The translations under genes were made by a program, and so were the position numbers. DNA of 64,000 nt from Octopus vulgaris (taxonomy: Eukaryota). Under the pieces are notes generated by a model. That model was given only the letters and a program-made list of their open reading frames with translations. It made no database searches and was not told where the DNA came from. Positions 1,241 through 59,581 of this stretch are shown here, one piece after another. The stretch's first letter is position 1. The number at the start of each line of letters is the position of its first letter. Location: assembly GCA_951406725.2 (NCBI GenBank), contig OX597823.1, positions 59,520,001 through 59,584,000 on the forward strand, given 5' to 3'.

Positions 1241-2738
1241 ATTTAGTTATCTAAAATTTCTATTTAACTCTAAACTATTGAAACAACGCTGGTTGTTAAT
1301 TTGAACTCAGAGAGGTTAAAAACAAAATCAATAAACAAGATATAAAAAAACAAAATCTTTTTTTTTAAAGAACATTCTAATTTATTAAATAAATAGAAAA
1401 AACAATCATAGTGCAAGCAGAAAATAATTTTTTAAAAATACAGAAATAAATTTGTAAAACTTTAATGAAAATGAAAATAAAAGTATGTAAAAAAATAAAG
1501 AGAAATACAATACCTCCTCAGAAAGAATTTTAATTCTTTCAAGTTCTAGAGGACAATAAGAACTTGGAACTGTTTGGACATGACTAGAAATGATAGCTAA
1601 CTCTACATTATAGATAAAAGTGGCAGTTTTATGAAACTAAATGAGTCGTAATGTTGTGTTAAAAATAGTGATCTTTATGAAAACAATACTAAGTTCACAT
1701 TATATTGTTTTTTATTCAGGTTTTTTTTCTGACTTGATTCATTCGTTGGTTAAAAATAGAATGTTTACTAAAGATGAGGATAATAACATAAGTCAGAATG
1801 CATAATATGATATTCATGGCTTTTGTGATACTGAAAAAATACAACAACAAAAAAGCTAAAATATTCTTTAGTAATACAAAAGAAAATACAATTCTAATGT
1901 AACAATTTTTGTATTCTGGACAGAAATTATTTTTCTTCACTTTTAGCTGGTTCATATATTTATTTAAAGGACCAAAATATATATATAAGAAATCTACATA
2001 AATTCACCAATTTTAGTCATAAAAATTTTTTTTGTACCAAAAAGAAAAGAATGAAAAAAAATGTCAAGGAAAAGTCTTCGTTAATTATTTGAATATCTTT
2101 GTTTTGAAAGAAGAAAAACAGAAACTTATGATTTCCATGTAAAGAGATATTATTACAACTGCTAAAAATAGTGAAATACAAATAAGAATTTATTCAAAGT
2201 AATTATGGAAAATAATGCAGAAAGAAGAGGTAAATAAACATTTTAGATTCATAAATATAGAAACATATTTTAACATATGTGGTTTATTTCAAGTGTTTAT
2301 CTTCAAATTTCTGACTTTTTTATTTCGTTTCAAAAGTATATTCATAAGCTTAACAGCATAAAAGAAAGCTAATTATTATGCGTTAATCTTAGTCTGTCAT
2401 TATTGAAATAACCTATAACATGTGACATGTGAAGAATATATAAGTCAGAAATCATGCATGCCAATCTGTGATTAAAAGTACCTATGTAGTCTCTTAACTA
2501 GCTAGAAATAGCAGTGAAATTTCACTGGAATCATATTGTGATCTTTAGAAAGGGAAGGACGCACATTAAATGAAGTATTTTTGGATTTGATCAAAGGTTT
2601 ACATGATCGGAGTTGATATGAAATTAAACAAAGAACATAAACCATAAATACAGTTCTATATTTAAGGGATGAAGAATTATGTGCATTATTTACATTATTT
2701 ACATTCAACAGATATTTGTCCTCATCTTGTTTGTTGTT

Positions 2739-2784
2739 AACACAACGTTTCAGCTGATATACTCTCCAGCTGTCTTCAGGTATT
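2739..2784 (-). ncRNA. Minimal hammerhead ribozyme motif (PLE-type)
   Basis: Minus strand: aatac CTGAAGA c agctg gagagtatat cagct GAAAC GTT gtgtt; stem I aatac/gtgtt, stem II agctg/cagct, stem III reduced to palindrome AACGTT. Confidence 0.7.
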
Positions 2785-2989
2785 CTTGGGAAATTTCAAA
2801 CCTGGGTTCTCATTCCTAAGATATTTTTCAATGTTATTATTATTATTATCATCATTATCATTATTATTATTGTTCAGGTCCCGTGGGCATATGGTGTAGT
2901 GGTTAAGAGCACGGGCTACTAACCCCAAGATTCTGAGTTTGATTCCAAGCAGTGACCTGAATAATAATAATAATAATAATGATAATAAC

Positions 2990-3036
<47 letters not shown>

Positions 3037-3095
3037 CAACAGCAACATCGAAAAATACCTTAGGAATGAGAGAGCCCAGGTTCGAAATTTCCCCA

Positions 3096-3136
3096 AGATA
3101 CCTGAGGAAGGCTTGAGGTTATATCAGCTGAAACGT
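3096..3136 (+). ncRNA. Hammerhead motif, second arm; homology stops at GAAACGT
   Basis: agatac CTGAGGA aggcttgaggttatatcagct GAAAC GT, after which the sequence diverges from the left arm. Confidence 0.55.
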
Positions 3137-3600: not shown

Positions 3601-6427
3601 TCTATAGCAACATTGTAGTTATTGAAATTCAATAGTCTTTAATACTACTGCCATCAGTAGTAGTAAAAGCAAAATGTAAGAGGTTTTGGTGTACCATAAA
3701 GATATAAAATATCTGAACCTAACATCAGGTCCTATTATACATTGATATACATAATGTATGAAAAAAGTATGACTAAACAGTCAAGATTTTAATTTACTAT
3801 GTAAGAGAATAAGAGTGAATATTGTGGACAACCTAACTATAAGTGACATTCTTAAGATTTAAATAAAATAAAAAGATGTTACATGATTTACTTAATAATT
3901 GTGTAACATCTCCTATACTTTCTCTATCATATTTAATCCTATCTATTTGTATATACATTTCAAGGCAGAATTACTCAAAGTTTATAAAATCCTTCATTTA
4001 CACACAGCCACATATACATATCTGAAACTTTACATAATATAACTGTATTAATACAGATGATATTCATTGATTAGGTTTGGAAAAATTACAGTCTAAACAG
4101 CTAGGATTTGAACTCATTATCTAAAAGATAAGTTTAAGATTTAAATAAATATGTTGCCCAATGTTCATTTCTTTCCTTTAATCTTTCAACTGTATTTTAA
4201 TTATATCTATTAGCATATAAACTTCACTGCAAAATAATCTGCGAAAAAGAAGCATACACATATCATTTTACGCACACATATCTATAATTATATTCAGCTT
4301 CAAATTTTAAAAAGCAGGTAATGTTGAAATACTAGAAGTAATTTTGAACATTATGATAATGTGTATATTTCTAGCTTGTTTTTTCTTGAAATATCTAATA
4401 TAGTCCTGTCAGTCTTAATTATAGAATTTTAATTCAAATAACTTTCAGTTTTCAGTTACTCTTTAGAGTAACTTTTGTTTCAGGATCTTTTAGTCTAAAC
4501 AAAAGTAATGAAATAAAACTTTTAAAATACATCTGAATATTTCTATTCCTCTTTCATAAACATCTTTTCAAAATATCTGAACTTTTTCATTTCTCTTTCA
4601 CTTTTAAATGAATCTGAAGAGAGTTTGACAGCAATAAAGGTTAAGAAAATGTCAAATAGTTGCTGTTGCGTATTTAGCAATTCTCGTAAAGTCTCCAGTC
4701 TTTTTAACACAAATGAATCAATCATAGAAGTCACTGTTGCTACAATATGACATTTCACCAATCTCCTTAAGAACGGAAGAGTCCTTGCTCTTTCACAGAT
4801 CAGTTCTGTAAAAGCCTTTGGCTTAACATTGCCAAATATCCATGTGCCTTTCTGAAAACACTTGGCTGCAATACATCGGCTGCTCATCCATGAAAAGTCT
4901 TTAAGTAATGAGCCATTCTTCACCAACAACAAACTTGCCACAAATCAATACTAACATTGTCACAATCAAAGAAGTCATTGAGGAAAGGGCCTCAGCTTAT
5001 TTCTGACAATATTTTCCACTTGAATTGTCCATGATTACTTTGTGATAGAGTGTTCTTTTAGAAACTATAACATTCTTGTTTCAAATCCTAAAGGCTTCTA
5101 ACATCAAGATCTATTTGTGCTGATAATGTTATATGCATTTTGTTTGCAGAAAAATATTGAAAAATTAAATTATAAAGTAACCACTTTATGCAATTTAGTA
5201 CATACATGTATATGTGAGTGTATGTACAGCTCTGAATGTTATAAAGTAAATTAAATTATAAAGCTTCTGTTTCAGATTTTCTCACTGTTTCTCTTTTCTG
5301 ACACAAATCTCTGCTGAAAATATCTATCACTCTACTCCAAATATCTTAGTAGTTAATTCATTCATAAAATATAATTTTTTCCAGTTATTACCATAAGGTT
5401 TGTTCAATAGAAAGCAGATGTTAGAAAACAAAAATATTAATACATTAATATGCATTGAATATAAACATGGACATTGATGCTATATGAAATAGAAAAAATA
5501 AATTGGTGTTCATTCCCACCTGACACTTATTTTTGTATTTCACTTAATATTTTATCTCTCCAGTTGTCCATATTTACATACAATATATATACAAATTTAT
5601 TTTTTGAGGAAATCTTAGCTTAATAATAAATTAATTAAAAATCTTAATGTTTTCTTCATTGAAGTAATTAAGTTATTAATTACATAACTCTTGTGATGTT
5701 AAAGTAATAAAATAAAATATGTTTTTGCTTGTAGAGATTCCTGCTGTTCATTGCTTCTAATTGCTTGTATTTTTAAATTATTCATATTATAAATTAGAAA
5801 ATTAATTCGTTTTTGACATGTCTTATTTTCTTAAGAAAATTGAGATACTTTTATTGTAAAAATATGCATGTAGCACATGTTGCTGCAATTAGCGCATAGC
5901 ATGGCTGTTTAATTACAATAAATCCTACTTGTAAGATAATTAATTATATTGTAATCTGTAAGAGTTTAATGACTCATCAGCTTCAAAATTGTTTCATATT
6001 GAGATCATTTCTAAAGTGACAGTTCTACCATCTTTTAAAATGTAGACAGTGTAACTAATGGCAAAATTCCATTTATACACGTAGATAAGCTTGTGAATGC
6101 AATTTAGTACATGCCTGTATATGTGAGTGTATGGACAGCTCTGAATGTTATAAGTGTATATGTGTTTATAAATAAATTCAAAGTTTTTAAATATAATTCA
6201 TTCAAAATTAAAGTATACTTTAAAAGAAGAGAAAAAATTCAAGGATAAGACGAAGTCAGAAAGAAGAGTAGCCATTGCTGTTTTCAATATTTAAATCCTA
6301 AAAGCAGAGTAGCTAACACAAGGCAAATTAAGGCAGAGGATTAGCAAAATCATTAGAGAACATGTAGTATTTAGTTACAGTACTTCACATTCTGAATTCA
6401 AATCCTGTCATGGTCACATCTGACTTG

Positions 6428-6512
6428 TGGAGGCACATGGCCTAGTGGTTAGAGCAGCAGACTCACGGTCGAGGGATCACGGGTTCGAATCTTAGACCGG
6501 GCGATGTGTGTG
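6428..6512 (+). mobile_element. tRNA-derived SINE head fragment
   Basis: ggaggcacatggcctagtggttagagc...gggttcgaatc: A box and B box. Confidence 0.7.
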
Positions 6513-6699
6513 CTTATAAAAACAAGAACTTGGTAAACAATTGAAATATTCCAGAATAAGTAGCATTTATAGTATGAATCTTTGATAGTTAAGTTAGTGT
6601 TAACATTTTTAATGCAGGGACTGTGAAAAATTTATTTTGAAATATTTATACACTGAAGAAATGAATACATTAAACTCAGTGATTAATACTGGTCTCAAA

Positions 6700-7929: not shown

Positions 7930-8408
7930 TTCACCACATCATCAATTCACCACAAGATAAGTTCACCATCATCAATTCACCACAGGGAAAGTTCACTATC
8001 ATCAATTCACCACAGGGGCAGTACACCATCATCAATTCACCATAGGGAAAGTTCACCATCATCAGTTAACCACAGAGAAAGTTCACCATCATCAATTTAC
8101 CACAAGGAATGTTCACCATTATCAATTGAATGCTGGGAAGTTCACCATCATCAATTCACCACAGCGAAAGTTCACTATCATCAATTCACTGCCAGGAAAG
8201 TTCACCACAGAGAAAGTTCACCAATTCACTACAGGGAAAGTTCACCATCATCAATTCACTTCCAGGAAAGTTCACCATCATCAATTCACCACTGGGTAAG
8301 TTCACCATCATCAATTCACCACAGGAAAAGTTCATCATCAATTCACTGCCAGGACAGTTCACCATCATCAATCCACCACAGGGAAAATTCACCATCATCA
8401 GTTCACTG
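7930..8408. repeat. ~30-bp minisatellite, roughly 15 degenerate units (catcatcaattcaccacagggaaagttcac)
   Basis: Tandem units visible; produces the 10-aa periodic ORFs (INSPQGKFTI). Confidence 0.9.
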
Positions 8409-8451: not shown

Positions 8452-8668
8452 CTATTCTTTTATTCTTTTCCTTTTACTTGTTTCAGTCATTTGACTGTGG
8501 CCATGCTGGGACACTGCCTTTAGTTGAACAAATCACCCCAAACCTATATTTTGTAAGCCTAGTACTTATTCTGTTGGTCTCTTTTGTGAAACTGCTAAGT
8601 TTATGGGGATGTAAACACACCAACGTCAGTTGTCAAGTGATGTTGGGGAGACAAACACAGACACACAA

Positions 8669-8755
<87 letters not shown>

Positions 8756-8919
8756 CGACGGGCTTCTTTCAGTTTCTGTCTGCCAAACCCACTCACAAGT
8801 CTTTGGTCGGCCCTAGGCTATAGTAGAAGACACTTGCTCAAGGTGTCACGCAGTGGGACTGAACCCGAAACCATTTGGTTGACAAGCAAGCTTCTTACCA
8901 CACAGTCACACCTGTGCCT
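8452..8919 (-). mobile_element. SINE family A, full length
   Basis: Head at 8919, internal (CA)n/(TA)n tract, tail ...aaatgactgaaacaagtaaaag. Confidence 0.9.
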
Positions 8920-9337
8920 ATGGATATATTTTCTCAGTAAACTTTCCTCATGGTGAACTGACGGCAGTGAACTTACCTGTTTTGAAAGAGTTGCATTGGT
9001 CTGAGCAACTCACATGACAGGATGATGATGATGATGTTGATGAAGATTTCTGTCAGCACCTATAAAATAAAAAGGATCTTAATCAGAATTTTCATCCATG
9101 AATATTCAGTTGCTTCATCAACTAAAATAGCACACGAGTGGTCGAGTATTCCATAGACATATGTACACTTAATGTTATTCTCAGTTGGAATGAACATGGA
9201 CCAGGATGAAAAGATTAGGTCATTGAACTGCATGTACAATCCATCCATCAGGCTCCTACATAGTTTCCATCTACCCAGTTTCACTTACAGGGTATGAGTT
9301 GATGCAAGGCTATAGAAAATGATGCTTGTCCAAAGTA

Positions 9338-23831: not shown

Positions 23832-24340
23832 TTTAATGAGAATGGATCAGCTCTGGAAAAGAAATGAACCAGACAACCAAGAAGTGCTCATACTCCACAG
23901 AATATCAAGGCTCTATGTGCTTCACTCCTACAGAGCCCGTGGCACTCTGATTATAACTAAACAGCTGCAGTAAGGTTGTCCCAAGAGAACATTCACCAAA
24001 TTCTCCATTTTGACTGAAAATTTCATCCAAACAAGTCGCAGATCAGGCAAGAACTGAAGAAGAATGGTCACCAATTGCAATTAGAATTCTGTCAAAAAAA
24101 TTATGAAAAATATAAATGAAAACAACAAATTTCTGAACAAGCTGTGGATGTCAGTTGAGGCCCAATTTCATCTCACAGGTTATGTGGACAAGCAGAATTA
24201 TCATCAGTGTGAAGACAACAAACCTAAAGAATTTCATGAAAGCCCCTTACACAGCAGCATGGTGATAATATGGTGTGCAGTTTCATCACATGGGGTCATC
24301 GGCCTTACTTGTCATCTACAGGGCATAATTTTCAGATATT
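23830..24340 (+). mobile_element. Tc1/mariner-superfamily transposase remnant
   Basis: WMSVEAQFHLTGYVDKQN..., E.PLHS..V.IWCAVSSHGVIG (first catalytic D region, mutated). Confidence 0.7.
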
Positions 24341-24344
24341 AATA

Positions 24345-24647
24345 ATTTGACTTTATTTACATTTGATGGATGTTTGTCTTCAGCTTGTCTGTTGTTAACA
24401 CAATGTTTCAGCTGATATACCTTCCAGCCTTCATCAGGTTTCTTGGGTGAAATTTCGAACCTGGGTTCTCATTTCTAAGGAATTTTTCGATGTTATTATT
24501 ACTATTATTATTCAGGTCACTGCCTGGAATCAACCTCAGAATCTTGGGGTTAGTAGCCTGTGCTCTTAACCACTACACCATATATCCATCAAATGTAAAT
24601 AAAATAAATAATGTACATAATTCCTCATCTCTTAAATATAGAACTGT
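24345..24647 (-). mobile_element. Second copy of the tRNA-headed HHR SINE-like element, with short inverted 3' tail
   Basis: tRNA-like head 24514-24583 (-), short (AAT)n, body, HHR; 24582-24647 is the family 3' end in the opposite orientation. Confidence 0.8.
24397..24442 (-). ncRNA. Minimal hammerhead ribozyme motif
   Basis: Minus strand: gaaac CTGATGA a ggctg gaaggtatat cagct GAAAC ATT gtgtt (canonical CUGAUGA core; GTT changed to ATT). Confidence 0.65.
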
Positions 24648-26005
24648 GTTAATAATTTACATTACTGATTCTTAAAAGGCAAGTTGTTTAATTTCTGTCA
24701 ATAATTTTTTTTTTTTGCTGGATTGGGAATTTTTTCTATGTTTCAGTTTTTTTCTTTACAATAGTATTTAAGAGAAATGGGCAGCCCTTGATTAACTGCA
24801 TTATGTATAGTATTTTATTTGACGAAGTAGTTGTTTAACCAAGGATAGACATAATGGAACATGCATATGCTGGAAGCCATTCTATCCATACCAATGATAT
24901 GGACAAATTTAATTTAACCAAGAATTTGAATAAATTAAATTAAATTAAGTTCAAATCTTACCAGAGTGGTTTTACCTCGTCTTCTTCAACGAAATAATAA
25001 ATGTACAGGCTATGAAATGAGGTCAGTTTTCTTGGTTACTGTTCTTTTATAAGAAACAAAAAAAAAATGTATTAACTTCTGACTGAGTTAAAGTAAATTT
25101 TATGTCACAGAATTATAAAACGACTTTACAAAATATTTAAATAATTCAAATCAGACATGCAATAAATTTCTTGTTTTTCCACTTTCTTAAAATTTTAAGT
25201 GTGCTGTATGATTCACATAATACATATTTTTTTCTCCAAATATGCATACATTTTTGTATTGGTTTTCTTTTTGAAAACTACTGCTACTGTTTTAACGATA
25301 ATGAATTCATGACAATTAGGGGTAAAATATTTCTGCTTAAACACACACACACACACATATATATGCATGCATAAATATCTTACATATATATATGTACACA
25401 CATATATATATATATATGTATGTACGTATATATATATATATATATATATATCTTATATTTATTATATATATGTATACACACATATGTATACATTTTAAAA
25501 CTGATTTTAGAAAAGTTTAATTTTCTTTATAAAAGAAATCTTTTAAAGCACAATTAGTAAATGCCCAAGTGGTTAACAACAAAAAAAGAAAAATGGAAAT
25601 GAGAGAAGAAAACTAAACAGCGTTTGGCATATATAATTTGCATCTTATTATTTACCAATAAAAATAATTCAAAATGAAGACAAAAAAAATGCACAAGAAT
25701 TGTATTTTGAATTTCTGTTGGTCTGATTTTTGTTCATCATCATCATTATTGCTATTATTATTATCATTATCATTATTGCTATTATTATTATTATTATTAT
25801 TATTATCATCATTATTATTATTATTATTATTATTATTTTATTTTGTACTTTATTTTATTCTTTGCATTTCACATTTTAAAACTTTAATCGAACAGATTAA
25901 ATAACCATTTAGACATGTACATAAAATTGTGTGGTAAGATGAAGGGCAAGGAAGTGTGTGTGTGTATGTGTAGTTGTATGTATATATCAAGTATGTATAT
26001 ATAGT

Positions 26006-33145: not shown

Positions 33146-33344
33146 CCACTTTTTTTTTTAACCAGGAAATGCAATAAAACTAATAAATATTCTTTTGTTA
33201 AGCAATATTTGAATTATTTTACATTGTTAATGGTTGAACAGCATGACTAGAAACCTTCAGGTCTGCCCATTGAAAGAAAGAAACAATAGCAATATTTTAT
33301 CATTAAATTTTAAAGAATATTTTTTTTAATAAAGTTTTTATATA

Positions 33345-33734
33345 CTCTTTACTCTTTTACTTGTTTCAGTCATTTGACTGCGACCATGCTGGAGCACCGC
33401 CTTTGGTCGAGCAAATCGACCCCAGGACTTATTCTTTGTGAGCCTAGTACTTATTCTATCGGTCTCTTTTGCCGAACTGCTAAGTTACGGGAGCGTAAAC
33501 ATACCAGCATCGGTTGTCAAGCGATGTTGGGGAGACAAACACACACACACATATATATATACATAAATACGACGGGCTTATTTCAGTTTCTGCCTACCAA
33601 ATCCACTCACAAGGCTTTGGCCGGCCCGAGGCTATAGTAGAAGACACTTGCCCAAGTTGCCACACAGTGGGACTGAACCCAGAACCATGTTGTTGTTAAG
33701 CAAGCTACTTACCAACACAGCCACTTCTGTGCCT
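33345..33734 (-). mobile_element. SINE family A, full length
   Basis: Matches the family along its length. Confidence 0.9.
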
Positions 33735-34439
33735 ACATATTAAAATTCTATATTGTAATCCAATTTTCATAAATCAATTTAAAACTGCAATTTCTATAAA
33801 TAAAATCGAATCTACTTATTTTCAAAAAAATGCAAAAATAGCCAATGCATCCACTGTAAGGAAGGAGGAGCCACCTGCCCTTGTTAGGGTAAAGTTAGTT
33901 TGTTAGTTAAAATTCATGTAAAATACAAATAAATCCTGCAATTCAGCTACCGTTCTTGTCAACTTGCCTGAAAATAAAATAATCTGAATCCTGCAACTCT
34001 GAAAATGCAATCATACTATCTGAAAGCAAAAACCTTGTCAATTCACCCTAGGAAATAATAATCTAAATTCTGTTACTCTTAACATTAAATTAAAGTTTAA
34101 AAGCAAACAAAAAAACTTATTAAAACTTCAGAAGTTTTTACAACTTTGGTCGTCGTAAGGCTTTGCTTTCATTTGTTAAATAAAAATTCCTCATCGTATA
34201 ATGATTTTGCTTTCATTTTGTGAGAGACAGCTATCATGCAGAAAATGTCAGCTTCTAAATCCTGTTTTCTGATTAGGTGAAAATTATTAAACTTTAAACC
34301 TCAGTAACATTTTTCTGCAATAAGTACGTACGTATGTATGTCTATCTATGTATGTTTATGTGTCTGTGTGTGAGTGTTTATTTACGTTGGGCAGCAGAAA
34401 AGAGTATTGTAGATAATATAAGTAAATTCCCCCTCATCT

Positions 34440-44164: not shown

Positions 44165-44779
44165 AAATTTTAGCAGAAGGCCAGCGAATTTCGGAGGAAT
44201 TACATTGACCCCAGTAATCAGCTGGTACTTATTTTATCAACCCTAGAAGGATGAAAGGCAAAATTGACCCCAGCTACATTTGAACACAGAGCATAAAATC
44301 AGAAATGCCGCTAATAATTTTGTCTGGTGTAATAATGATTCTGCCAGCTCACCGCCTTACATATCACTCTTTTTATCTTTTACTTGTTTTAATCATTTGA
44401 CTGTGGCAATGCTGGAGCCCCACCTTTAGTCAAGCAAATCAACCCCAGGACTTATTCTTTGTAAGCCTAGTACTTATTCTATTGGTCTCTTTTGCTGAAC
44501 TGCTAAGTTACGGGGACGTAAACACACAAGCATCGGTTGTTAACTGATGTTGGGGGGACAAATACAGACCCACAAACACATACACACACACACACACATA
44601 TATACATATACATATATACGATGGGCTTCTTTCAGTTTCCGTCTACCAAATCCACTCACAAGGCTTTGGCCGGCCTGAGGCTATAGTGGAAGACACTTGC
44701 CCAAGGTGCCATGCAGTGGGACTGAACCCGGAACCATGTGGTTGGTAAGCAAGCTACTTACCACACAGCCACTCCTGTG
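44165..44779 (-). mobile_element. SINE family B (44165-44358) adjacent to SINE family A (44365-44779)
   Basis: Family motifs as above. Confidence 0.85.
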
Positions 44780-44979
44780 CTTAATAATAGAGTTCAATAT
44801 TTCGAGAGCTCAAATGAAAGTAGTAGTTTCTATTTTCAGTCTTTTCTGTTTTGTACTAAACTAAATTTGCTATCAATATCTCATGTCCTACGAAGATGGG
44901 GAGCTGGCAAAAATGTTAACACATATAAAGATAAATATATATACATATATATATATACATACATATACATAAATACATG

Positions 44980-58478: not shown

Positions 58479-58556
58479 TATATATATATATATATATCAT
58501 CATCATCATCATCATATATTGTCCGTTGTCCATTCTGGCATATATATATATTACTA

Positions 58557-58969
58557 TTACTCTTTTACTCTTTTATTTGTTTCAGTCATTTGACTGCGGC
58601 CATGCTGGAGCACCACCTTTAGTCGAGCAAATCAACCCCGATACTTATTCTTTGTAAGCCCAGTACTTATTCTATCGGTCTCTTTTGCCAAACCGCTAAG
58701 TGACGGGGACGTAAACACACCAGCATTGGTTGTCAAGCAATGCTAGAGGGACAAATACAGACACACAAACATATACATACACATACATATATATATACAT
58801 ATATACGACAGGCTTCTTTCAGTTTCAGTCTACCAAATCCACTCACAAGGCTTTGGTCGGCCCGGGGCTATAGCAGAAGACACTTGCCCAAGATGCCATG
58901 CAGTGGGACTGAACCCGGAACCATGTGGTCGGTTAGCAAGCTTCTTACCACACAACCACTCCTGCGCCT
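58557..58969 (-). mobile_element. SINE family A, full length
   Basis: Matches the family along its length. Confidence 0.9.
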
Positions 58970-59581
58970 ATATATATATATTGATATATACATACACACA
59001 CACATATACACACATACACATGTATATATTACATATATATATATTTATATATATGTATAAAGATATGTGCATGTGTATGTATACACACATGCATATATGT
59101 ATTAATGTATGCTTTTTATGTATATTCATGCAGCCATCTGGTTTGCCAGACCTCAGTCAAATCGTCCAACCCATGCTAGCATGGAAAGCGGACGTTAAAC
59201 GATGATGATGATGATGAGAGACATTCAAACATATACTAAATCTTTGCATGCATATACGCGGCACATGCAATTTATTTTTACTAATATGTATGTATTTATA
59301 TGTAATTGTGTAAGTGTGTATTTATACATATGTACACATATACACACACATAAGCACACATGCACACGCCACACACACACACACCACAGATATGCATGGT
59401 ATAATGAGGAAACATAAGAGAGACAAAATGAGAGGGACAGGTTTTATTAGCATAAAACTTGAAAGGAAGGGAAAGAAGGGAAAATTGAGAAGGAAAGTTT
59501 GTGGAAAGAAGAAAAAATTTAGAGGTGAGGCAGGAATGCATTTACATGGGAGGAGTTAGGAATAGAGGGGTAATGGGGTGG

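Follow-up and report, generated by a model that had tools for sequence, protein, structure and literature searches.

A short sequence that is highly repeated in the Octopus vulgaris genome is, judging from its sequence, the pLTR of an autonomous Penelope/Poseidon element residing in the same genome, and consists of a tRNA-derived head, an (AAT)n spacer, a hammerhead and a tail. We are nearly certain that the short copies originate from this Penelope-like element (PLE) and were mobilized by it. The pLTR carries a tRNA-derived segment with A and B boxes, and the short copies are likely to be reverse-transcribed Pol III transcripts started there. According to SINE theory, a tRNA head comes with a LINE tail; here, a tRNA promoter is fused with PLE machinery at high copy number. 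If Pol III drives it, the family would illustrate how SINE-like families can originate inside an autonomous element, with a Penelope enzyme instead of a LINE sustaining a SINE-like lifestyle. Its tens of thousands of natural insertions make two questions about PLEs testable, namely how inverted pairs form and what role the hammerhead plays. Repeat libraries will tend to split the one element into a "SINE" and a "Penelope".

Layout of the copies in the window

The window (the whole 64-kb stretch of octopus DNA that was analyzed) contains two copies of the repeat, at 2649–3136 and 24339–24658, each a head-to-head pair. The sense-strand unit is defined here as an 84-nt tRNA-like head, the (AAT)n spacer and a 185-nt body (numbered B1–185), and a majority sequence was built from 64 heads and 70 bodies. 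Modules were called using the consensus patterns of the A and B boxes and the NUH cleavage rule. The left arm of copy 1 lies on the minus strand. Its body, B1–185 (2649–2833), matches the family majority at 90% and contains the first codons of the PLE ORF, a minimal hammerhead and the 3′ tail. The start codon (ATG, B21) of the 838-codon ORF of full-length elements is located at 2811–2813 on this strand, the N-terminus of protein P0019 aligning from residue 11. The minimal type I hammerhead, supported by motif scan, fold and the published description of minimal PLE hammerheads, occupies 2739–2784 (minus), with its core at 2779–2748. The tail of ∼40 nt, found on only one arm per pair, is at 2649–2688 (minus); arm ends cluster at B∼137–159 and B∼180–185. 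The left-arm spacer, with the last ∼8 nt of a head, was read from the sequence at 2834–2879 (minus) and extends to the inversion junction at ∼2879/2880.

On the plus strand, the tRNA-derived head (2880–2962), which forms the 5′ part of the pLTR, opens with a GCCC-NN-GGGC palindrome and contains an A box (2892–2902) and a B box (2937–2945), the latter with a CpG C>T change. It is followed by the right-arm spacer (2960–3045) and by B1–89 of the body (3046–3136), with a hammerhead core at 3102–3133, which stops beside the predicted cut site. Copy 2 consists of two arms and a 10-bp TSD (24339–24348 and 24649–24658); its minus arm has a head at 24589–24510 and B1–149 at 24492–24342, and its plus arm comprises B116–184 at 24579–24647. 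The initial annotation of this DNA, made from the sequence alone, had described the tRNA-like head, spacer, body and hammerhead, the inverted arms of both copies and the absence of a poly(A) or LINE-type tail from the unit, and all of these are borne out. It had also seen no obvious TSD, which does not hold for copy 2 or for the family at large (see below); copy 1 has none, owing to the truncation of its right arm at 3136.

The autonomous Penelope/Poseidon element

The full element proceeds from one pLTR into an 838-codon ORF, which starts inside the pLTR and encodes an RT and a GIY-YIG endonuclease, and then through 23 nt into the next pLTR. The first 55 codons of this ORF are contained in the body of the repeat. 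The column majority of 64 fragments gives a single open frame of 838 codons (2,517 nt) that ends 23 nt before the head. This majority ORF is 57% identical to P0019 over residues 11–834, and the N-terminus of P0019 matches the peptide encoded by the supposed SINE body; the lack of any match when the 61-residue body frame was compared to longer proteins was thus a false negative.

Each junction of the element was recovered repeatedly. In a census of 92 head starts, a few arms had a common upstream sequence that encodes the GIY-YIG C-terminus, and at L059 the tail continues into the N-terminus of a PLE. BLAST searches with the endonuclease DNA located the head within ∼30 nt after the stop codon at 27 of 30 loci; one of the other three has a head that was seen by eye, and two are joined to a body with the head deleted. 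With a 20-mer from the 3′UTR as query, the head follows the 3′UTR at 29 of 30 loci. When the ORF start was the query, the body, through its last base, precedes the ORF at 24 of 30 loci; a head is present as well at five ORF-start loci, of which two follow the 3′ end of another copy in tandem. The order UTR-head-body-ORF occurs in tandem at L330 and L345, near-full copies are present at L315 and L316, and inverted pLTR arms adjoin long copies. No intact element was found among the copies examined, and no version without the head was seen. The initial annotation had proposed a Pol III SINE, mobilized by a PLE, whose tail is a hammerhead-containing Penelope-like end. The mobilizer and the PLE nature of the tail, now identified as the pLTR, hold; a separate SINE is not supported, the head being part of the autonomous pLTR. 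Copies that extend upstream of the head, which the annotation had named as evidence against its proposal, are what the endonuclease and 3′UTR searches retrieved, as the sequence runs there into 3′UTR and ORF.

The ORF scores above the cut-off for RVT_1 on a natural stretch of the element, its relatives carry PF00078/PF26215, and a GIY-YIG/CCHH endonuclease motif was read by eye. A CX2-5CxxC linker finger, a trait of Neptune/Nematis elements, is absent from this ORF and present in a Neptune element of the same genome used as control. We assign the element to Penelope/Poseidon on the basis of the predicted RT and C-terminal endonuclease, the missing linker finger, the pLTRs, the tail and the hammerhead. 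Among metagenome relatives with 30–53% identity, 69 of 79 loci were analyzed and, with many of them stopping short of the ORF end, no credible A/B box (one doubtful) was found after the ORF.

Two other candidates for the partner were rejected. Neptune-type PLEs (with a 781-aa ORF, as well as older families) have other hammerheads and do not match the tail, and the RT beside L018 is merely an insertion site. The Neptune-type PLE at L091–L095 is young: many copies have an intact frame of 781 codons, the hammerhead is a U3-A8 variant and, at L094 and L095, there is an upstream frame of 479 codons that overlaps.

The ages of short and long copies are similar. Divergence from the majority is 5.4% for ORF fragments and 4–5% for short arms; outside CpG it is 4.0% for short copies compared to 5.6% for long ones, the main variants are common to both, and no clear separate subfamily marks the short copies. 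These values suggest one burst, with the long copies if anything older.

Copy number and insertion anatomy

The genome comprises 2.8 Gb in about 30 large contigs. A 27-mer of the hammerhead has 4,734 exact matches in it, compared to none for the reversed control, so the repeat is far above chance expectation. Sixty evenly chosen 10-kb stretches contained eight insertions (one weak 27-nt match was dropped), which corresponds to tens of thousands genome-wide. An unselected set was taken from the first 30 pattern matches, which come from the start of contig C1 and represent 27 distinct insertions. Head-to-head pairs account for 21 of these 27, and no head-to-tail array of the short unit is among them; six of the seven evaluable insertions of the even sample are likewise inverted. 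Eighteen of the 21 pairs combine a long arm (ending at B∼180–185) with a short one (B∼137–159), so that the ∼40-nt tail is on one arm only, two are short/short, one has a truncated arm, and none is long/long. Reads and contigs from other organisms show these two arm ends too. A tail of 30–40 nt at one end is a PLE signature in the available text of PMC8557442, and such a tail reflects two internal priming sites, as shown in vitro for the anole Poseidon element in the part of PMC11167929 consulted.

Flanks match exactly over at least 8 nt in 37 of 56 pairs, compared to 0.6% of 1,520 mismatched flank pairs; only pairs with both ends intact were counted, which excludes six of 62 with a truncated arm. 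TSDs of the family are 8–14 bp long, and TSDs of 8–10 bp are described for PLEs in the sections of PMC3846280 available. In 77 pairs, 5% of private variants are common to both arms, compared to 2% for random pairs.

The TSD lengths and the head-body layout would also suit a conventional tRNA SINE that is moved by a LINE (RTE, L2 or CR1) and has acquired a hammerhead and inversions by chance. However, the body is the start of a PLE ORF plus pLTR, the one-sided 40-nt tail and the head-to-head pairs are marks of PLEs, and neither a poly(A) nor a repeat tail is present. This explanation is refuted by the finding that the tail is the PLE pLTR, and we assign it a negligible probability.

Two further features of the family were observed. 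An older subfamily, ∼80% identical to the majority, has an insertion before the hammerhead (L204:7173–7597 and L217:4353–4673). A different repeat of ∼450 nt has inserted repeatedly into the (AAT)n spacer (L033, L034, L054, L208 and L296–L298).

The hammerhead

The hammerhead spans B50–95 of the majority sequence, and its fold comprises a 5-bp stem I, CUGANGA followed by one extra nucleotide, stem II, and a palindromic stem III (GAA-ACGU). The predicted cut is near 2744/2743 of the left arm (minus strand). The core, the extra nucleotide after A9, the G-C pair closing stem II and the palindromic stem III are all present in the majority sequence. Metazoan PLE ribozymes have the same short stem I, extra base after A9, stem II-closing G-C pair and palindromic stem III, according to the portion of PMC4209133 available. 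A scan with Rfam gave no hammerhead match, and our call is based on the core motif and its agreement with the description of minimal PLE hammerheads in that source. The motif would have been inherited from the PLE and is predicted to be active only as a dimer or with the help of a protein. It is probably not needed for insertion; the available text of PMC11167929 reports that the hammerhead of the anole PLE is dispensable for insertion in vitro.

Two variants in this region are recorded here. A deletion across the predicted cut site (B87–90; 2747–2744 of the window, minus strand), mostly of 3 nt, is present in 35 of 233 arms. The deletion is found against several variant backgrounds, with the partner arm almost always lacking it (16 discordant, one concordant), and could result from the RT bridging a cleaved template or from slippage in a short GT/TGT repeat. 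The commonest non-CpG variant within the ribozyme core is at B59, the free N7 position (T/A), a pattern as if source elements had preserved an intact core.

The tRNA-derived head and the excess of pLTR-only copies

The head was compared to 35 tRNAs sampled from the same genome, representing seven amino-acid types. The best match among these is tRNA-Arg(TCT), with 50 of 73 nt and a score of 61.5 (mean 28.7 and maximum 46 for 300 shuffles), which within this sample makes it a candidate for the parent tRNA. ARAGORN and Rfam called no tRNA in the head. The majority head has perfect A and B boxes (the B box apart from CpG decay) and a decayed cloverleaf. A cluster of tRNA-Cys-like copies, with odd ACA and ACT anticodons among them, was noticed at L138.

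Copies consisting of the pLTR only dominate, and the head is present in ∼8 times more arms than the sequence just upstream. Exact 20-mers occur 5,148 times in the genome for the head and 850 times for the 3′UTR ∼60 nt upstream; corrected for retention, which was 36/106 (head) and 21/47 (3′UTR) arms in partly selected samples, these counts become ∼15,000 and 1,900 arms, respectively. Across the head start, the loss rate amounts to 0.033 per nt, compared to 0.002 upstream, and the upstream extension of 30 copies has a median of 374 nt. Of the arms in unselected samples, 21 extend to within the first 10 nt of the head and every one of them ends there, and UTR or ORF sequence is present in none of 35 insertions. 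The 5′ ends pile up 13 nt before the perfect A box. Such a sharp start at the head, with a ratio of ∼8:1, is what a Pol III-driven pLTR transcript would give. Transcription from the pLTR by Pol III thus appears likely, and it is somewhat probable that the transcript begins at the head.

The ∼8-fold preponderance of short copies starting at the head could also be produced by a separate Pol III SINE with a captured PLE 3′ end, mobilized in trans, with the head-bearing long elements being a later SINE-PLE recombinant. A set of AAGG variants, found in 16 of 81 short and two of 32 long copies of a sample drawn with window-like queries, would fit this origin. We consider it improbable, given that the head is on nearly every ORF-bearing copy with no headless PLE in sight, and that the ages overlap with the long copies, if anything, the older.

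The short copies carry the marks of PLE insertion: head-to-head arms, 3′ ends ∼40 nt apart and TSDs of 8–14 bp. We propose that transcription by Pol III would start at the head's first G, and that the PLE protein would nick AT-rich DNA and prime at two internal sites of the RNA. Internal priming would dispense with a poly(A) or a defined 3′ end, so that any Pol III transcript that spans the pLTR could serve as template. The two cDNAs are likely to meet via the palindrome at the 5′ end of the RNA, resulting in inverted pairs. The central dinucleotide of this palindrome is reversed at the junction (GT) in 15 of 62 short arms compared to none of 25 long ones; the restriction to short arms would fit the annealing of cDNA ends at the palindrome. 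Some observations weigh against the Pol III reading: the short copies have no subfamily of their own and few private variants are common to the arms, so that numerous decayed solo source copies are not evident, and the pLTR promoters of known PLEs are of the Pol II type.

The main alternative, which we regard as possible but less probable, is an ordinary Penelope/Poseidon element into whose pLTR a tRNA or SINE was passively inserted, with Pol II transcription, either internal or by tandem read-through. Short copies would then result from RT priming within the mRNA's 5′ pLTR, or from stalling or snap-back at a hairpin at the head start, and the 3′UTR end and head start of long copies can indeed form a hairpin. 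Inverted pLTRs, tails, TSDs, junction palindromes and solo pLTRs have all been described for PLEs (available portions of PMC3846280 and PMC8557442), short and long copies have variants in common, and a capped RNA is easier to translate for an 838-codon ORF. RNA-seq is also without a Pol III signal, although it is uninformative on this point, as embedded copies dominate the reads: three runs from a species carrying the repeat contain 4,700–6,600 reads each, equally from both strands, 74–75% of which extend into flanks, with no pile-up of starts or ends. One contig set likewise gave no start or strand signal, and a tail variant from the RNA reads has only two genome matches. Against this alternative, the A and B boxes are perfect while the stems have decayed, and copies begin 13 nt ahead of the A box. 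No head-only parent family was found, as 29 of 30 loci retrieved with the head run on into the body, and the junctions are perfect head/head palindromes, not the imperfect genomic hairpin.

The sense strand also speaks against a passive insertion, as it has no run of four T (T4) through the head, body and 2,517-nt ORF (∼2.6 kb), compared to 3.3 expected by synonymous resampling (P 0.026) or 4.5 by base shuffling (P 0.008). The Neptune control from the same genome has nine T4 runs (7.1 expected), and relatives are mostly at or above expectation (475 vs 365 expected in 69 loci). As T4 runs are also absent from two of 20 related PLE ORFs of at least 1.8 kb, the signal is modest. A bolder version of the Pol III reading is that the whole coding RNA of ∼2.9 kb is made by Pol III from the tRNA promoter of the pLTR, which we consider doubtful. 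Its corollaries, that the ORF has been purged of TTTT terminators and that the solo pLTRs constitute the first SINE class of a telomerase-related RT, are similarly unlikely; as part of the same idea, the hammerhead or a bound protein would render the uncapped RNA usable.

Comparison with known systems

The octopus element resembles described Penelope/Poseidon PLEs, as far as the available text of the sources extends, in most respects. The anole element PAc (PMC11167929) and Adineta Pen2 (PMC3846280) likewise have a single ORF of ∼840 aa with an RT plus a GIY-YIG domain at the C-terminus; this ORF starts within the pLTR, at the hammerhead or close to it. Inverted pLTRs, one-sided tails of 30–40 nt, TSDs of 8–10 bp and junction palindromes are also found in this group, and the pLTR suffices for mobilization in trans. 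PLEs without a tRNA segment can have palindromes at inverted junctions and solo pLTRs (PMC3846280, in part). Characterized PLE promoters within the pLTR are of the Pol II type. Unlike described PLEs, the octopus pLTR opens with an A/B-box segment derived from a tRNA, followed by an (AAT)n spacer, and inverted pairs of the pLTR alone constitute most of the copies.

Several short repeats combine some of these features. Sm-alpha and Sj-alpha of Schistosoma are also short, high-copy repeats with a tRNA-related Pol III promoter and a type I hammerhead (PMC6765202, PMC2770079, PMC8490949; available parts). They differ in forming tandem arrays from which a canonical hammerhead frees monomers, and the portions of PMC6765202 and PMC2770079 consulted report no partner, PLE tail or inversion signature. 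Non-LTR retrozymes (bioRxiv 10.64898/2026.07.22.740005), with type I hammerheads, and non-autonomous Chlamys elements such as MRC1 (PMC8557442) are likewise non-coding derivatives of PLE pLTRs; in contrast to the dispersed head-to-head pairs of octopus, they form head-to-tail tandems, and no tRNA promoter is reported in the available text on them. TRIMp3 elements (Cassandra, Helenus and Ajax), described in the available part of PMC10886601, share a small-RNA-derived Pol III promoter inside the terminal repeat. These are non-autonomous LTR elements, whereas in octopus the autonomous PLE itself carries the promoter segment.

Classical tRNA SINEs (SINE2) are similarly short and non-coding, with an A/B-box tRNA head, TSDs and tens of thousands of copies. 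The octopus repeat has the 5′ tRNA-derived head with A and B boxes that defines this class; it has no LINE-type tail and is not separate from its autonomous partner. Its tail is derived from a PLE instead of a LINE, priming appears to be internal, and the head is common to the autonomous element. The repeat is SINE-like in layout and probably in promoter. A search of the openly accessible literature found no tRNA-headed pLTR or PLE-mobilized SINE. A 2026 annotation of octopus lists 190 PLE families in the available part of PMC13282606, and a silent prior entry in Repbase, Dfam or an octopus repeat library is possible.

Other repeats

A second, more abundant group is made up of T-rich short repeats that contain a minimal hammerhead, with 11 motif matches in 600 kb. 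They were noticed at L209, L214, L220, L229, L234, L238, L240, L246 and L247, and some are inverted (L246). At L229, the T-rich repeat is located ∼1 kb downstream of a CT-rich fragment of a PLE ORF and is likely to be the 3′ end of the same element. The window also contains at least five copies of another dispersed SINE-like family (D14, D17, D18) that ends in (AC)n/(AT)n, at 13–249, 8601–8937, 33339–33751, 44362–44800 and 58555–58987, as well as a minisatellite at 7937–8406 with ∼15 copies of a 30-bp unit.
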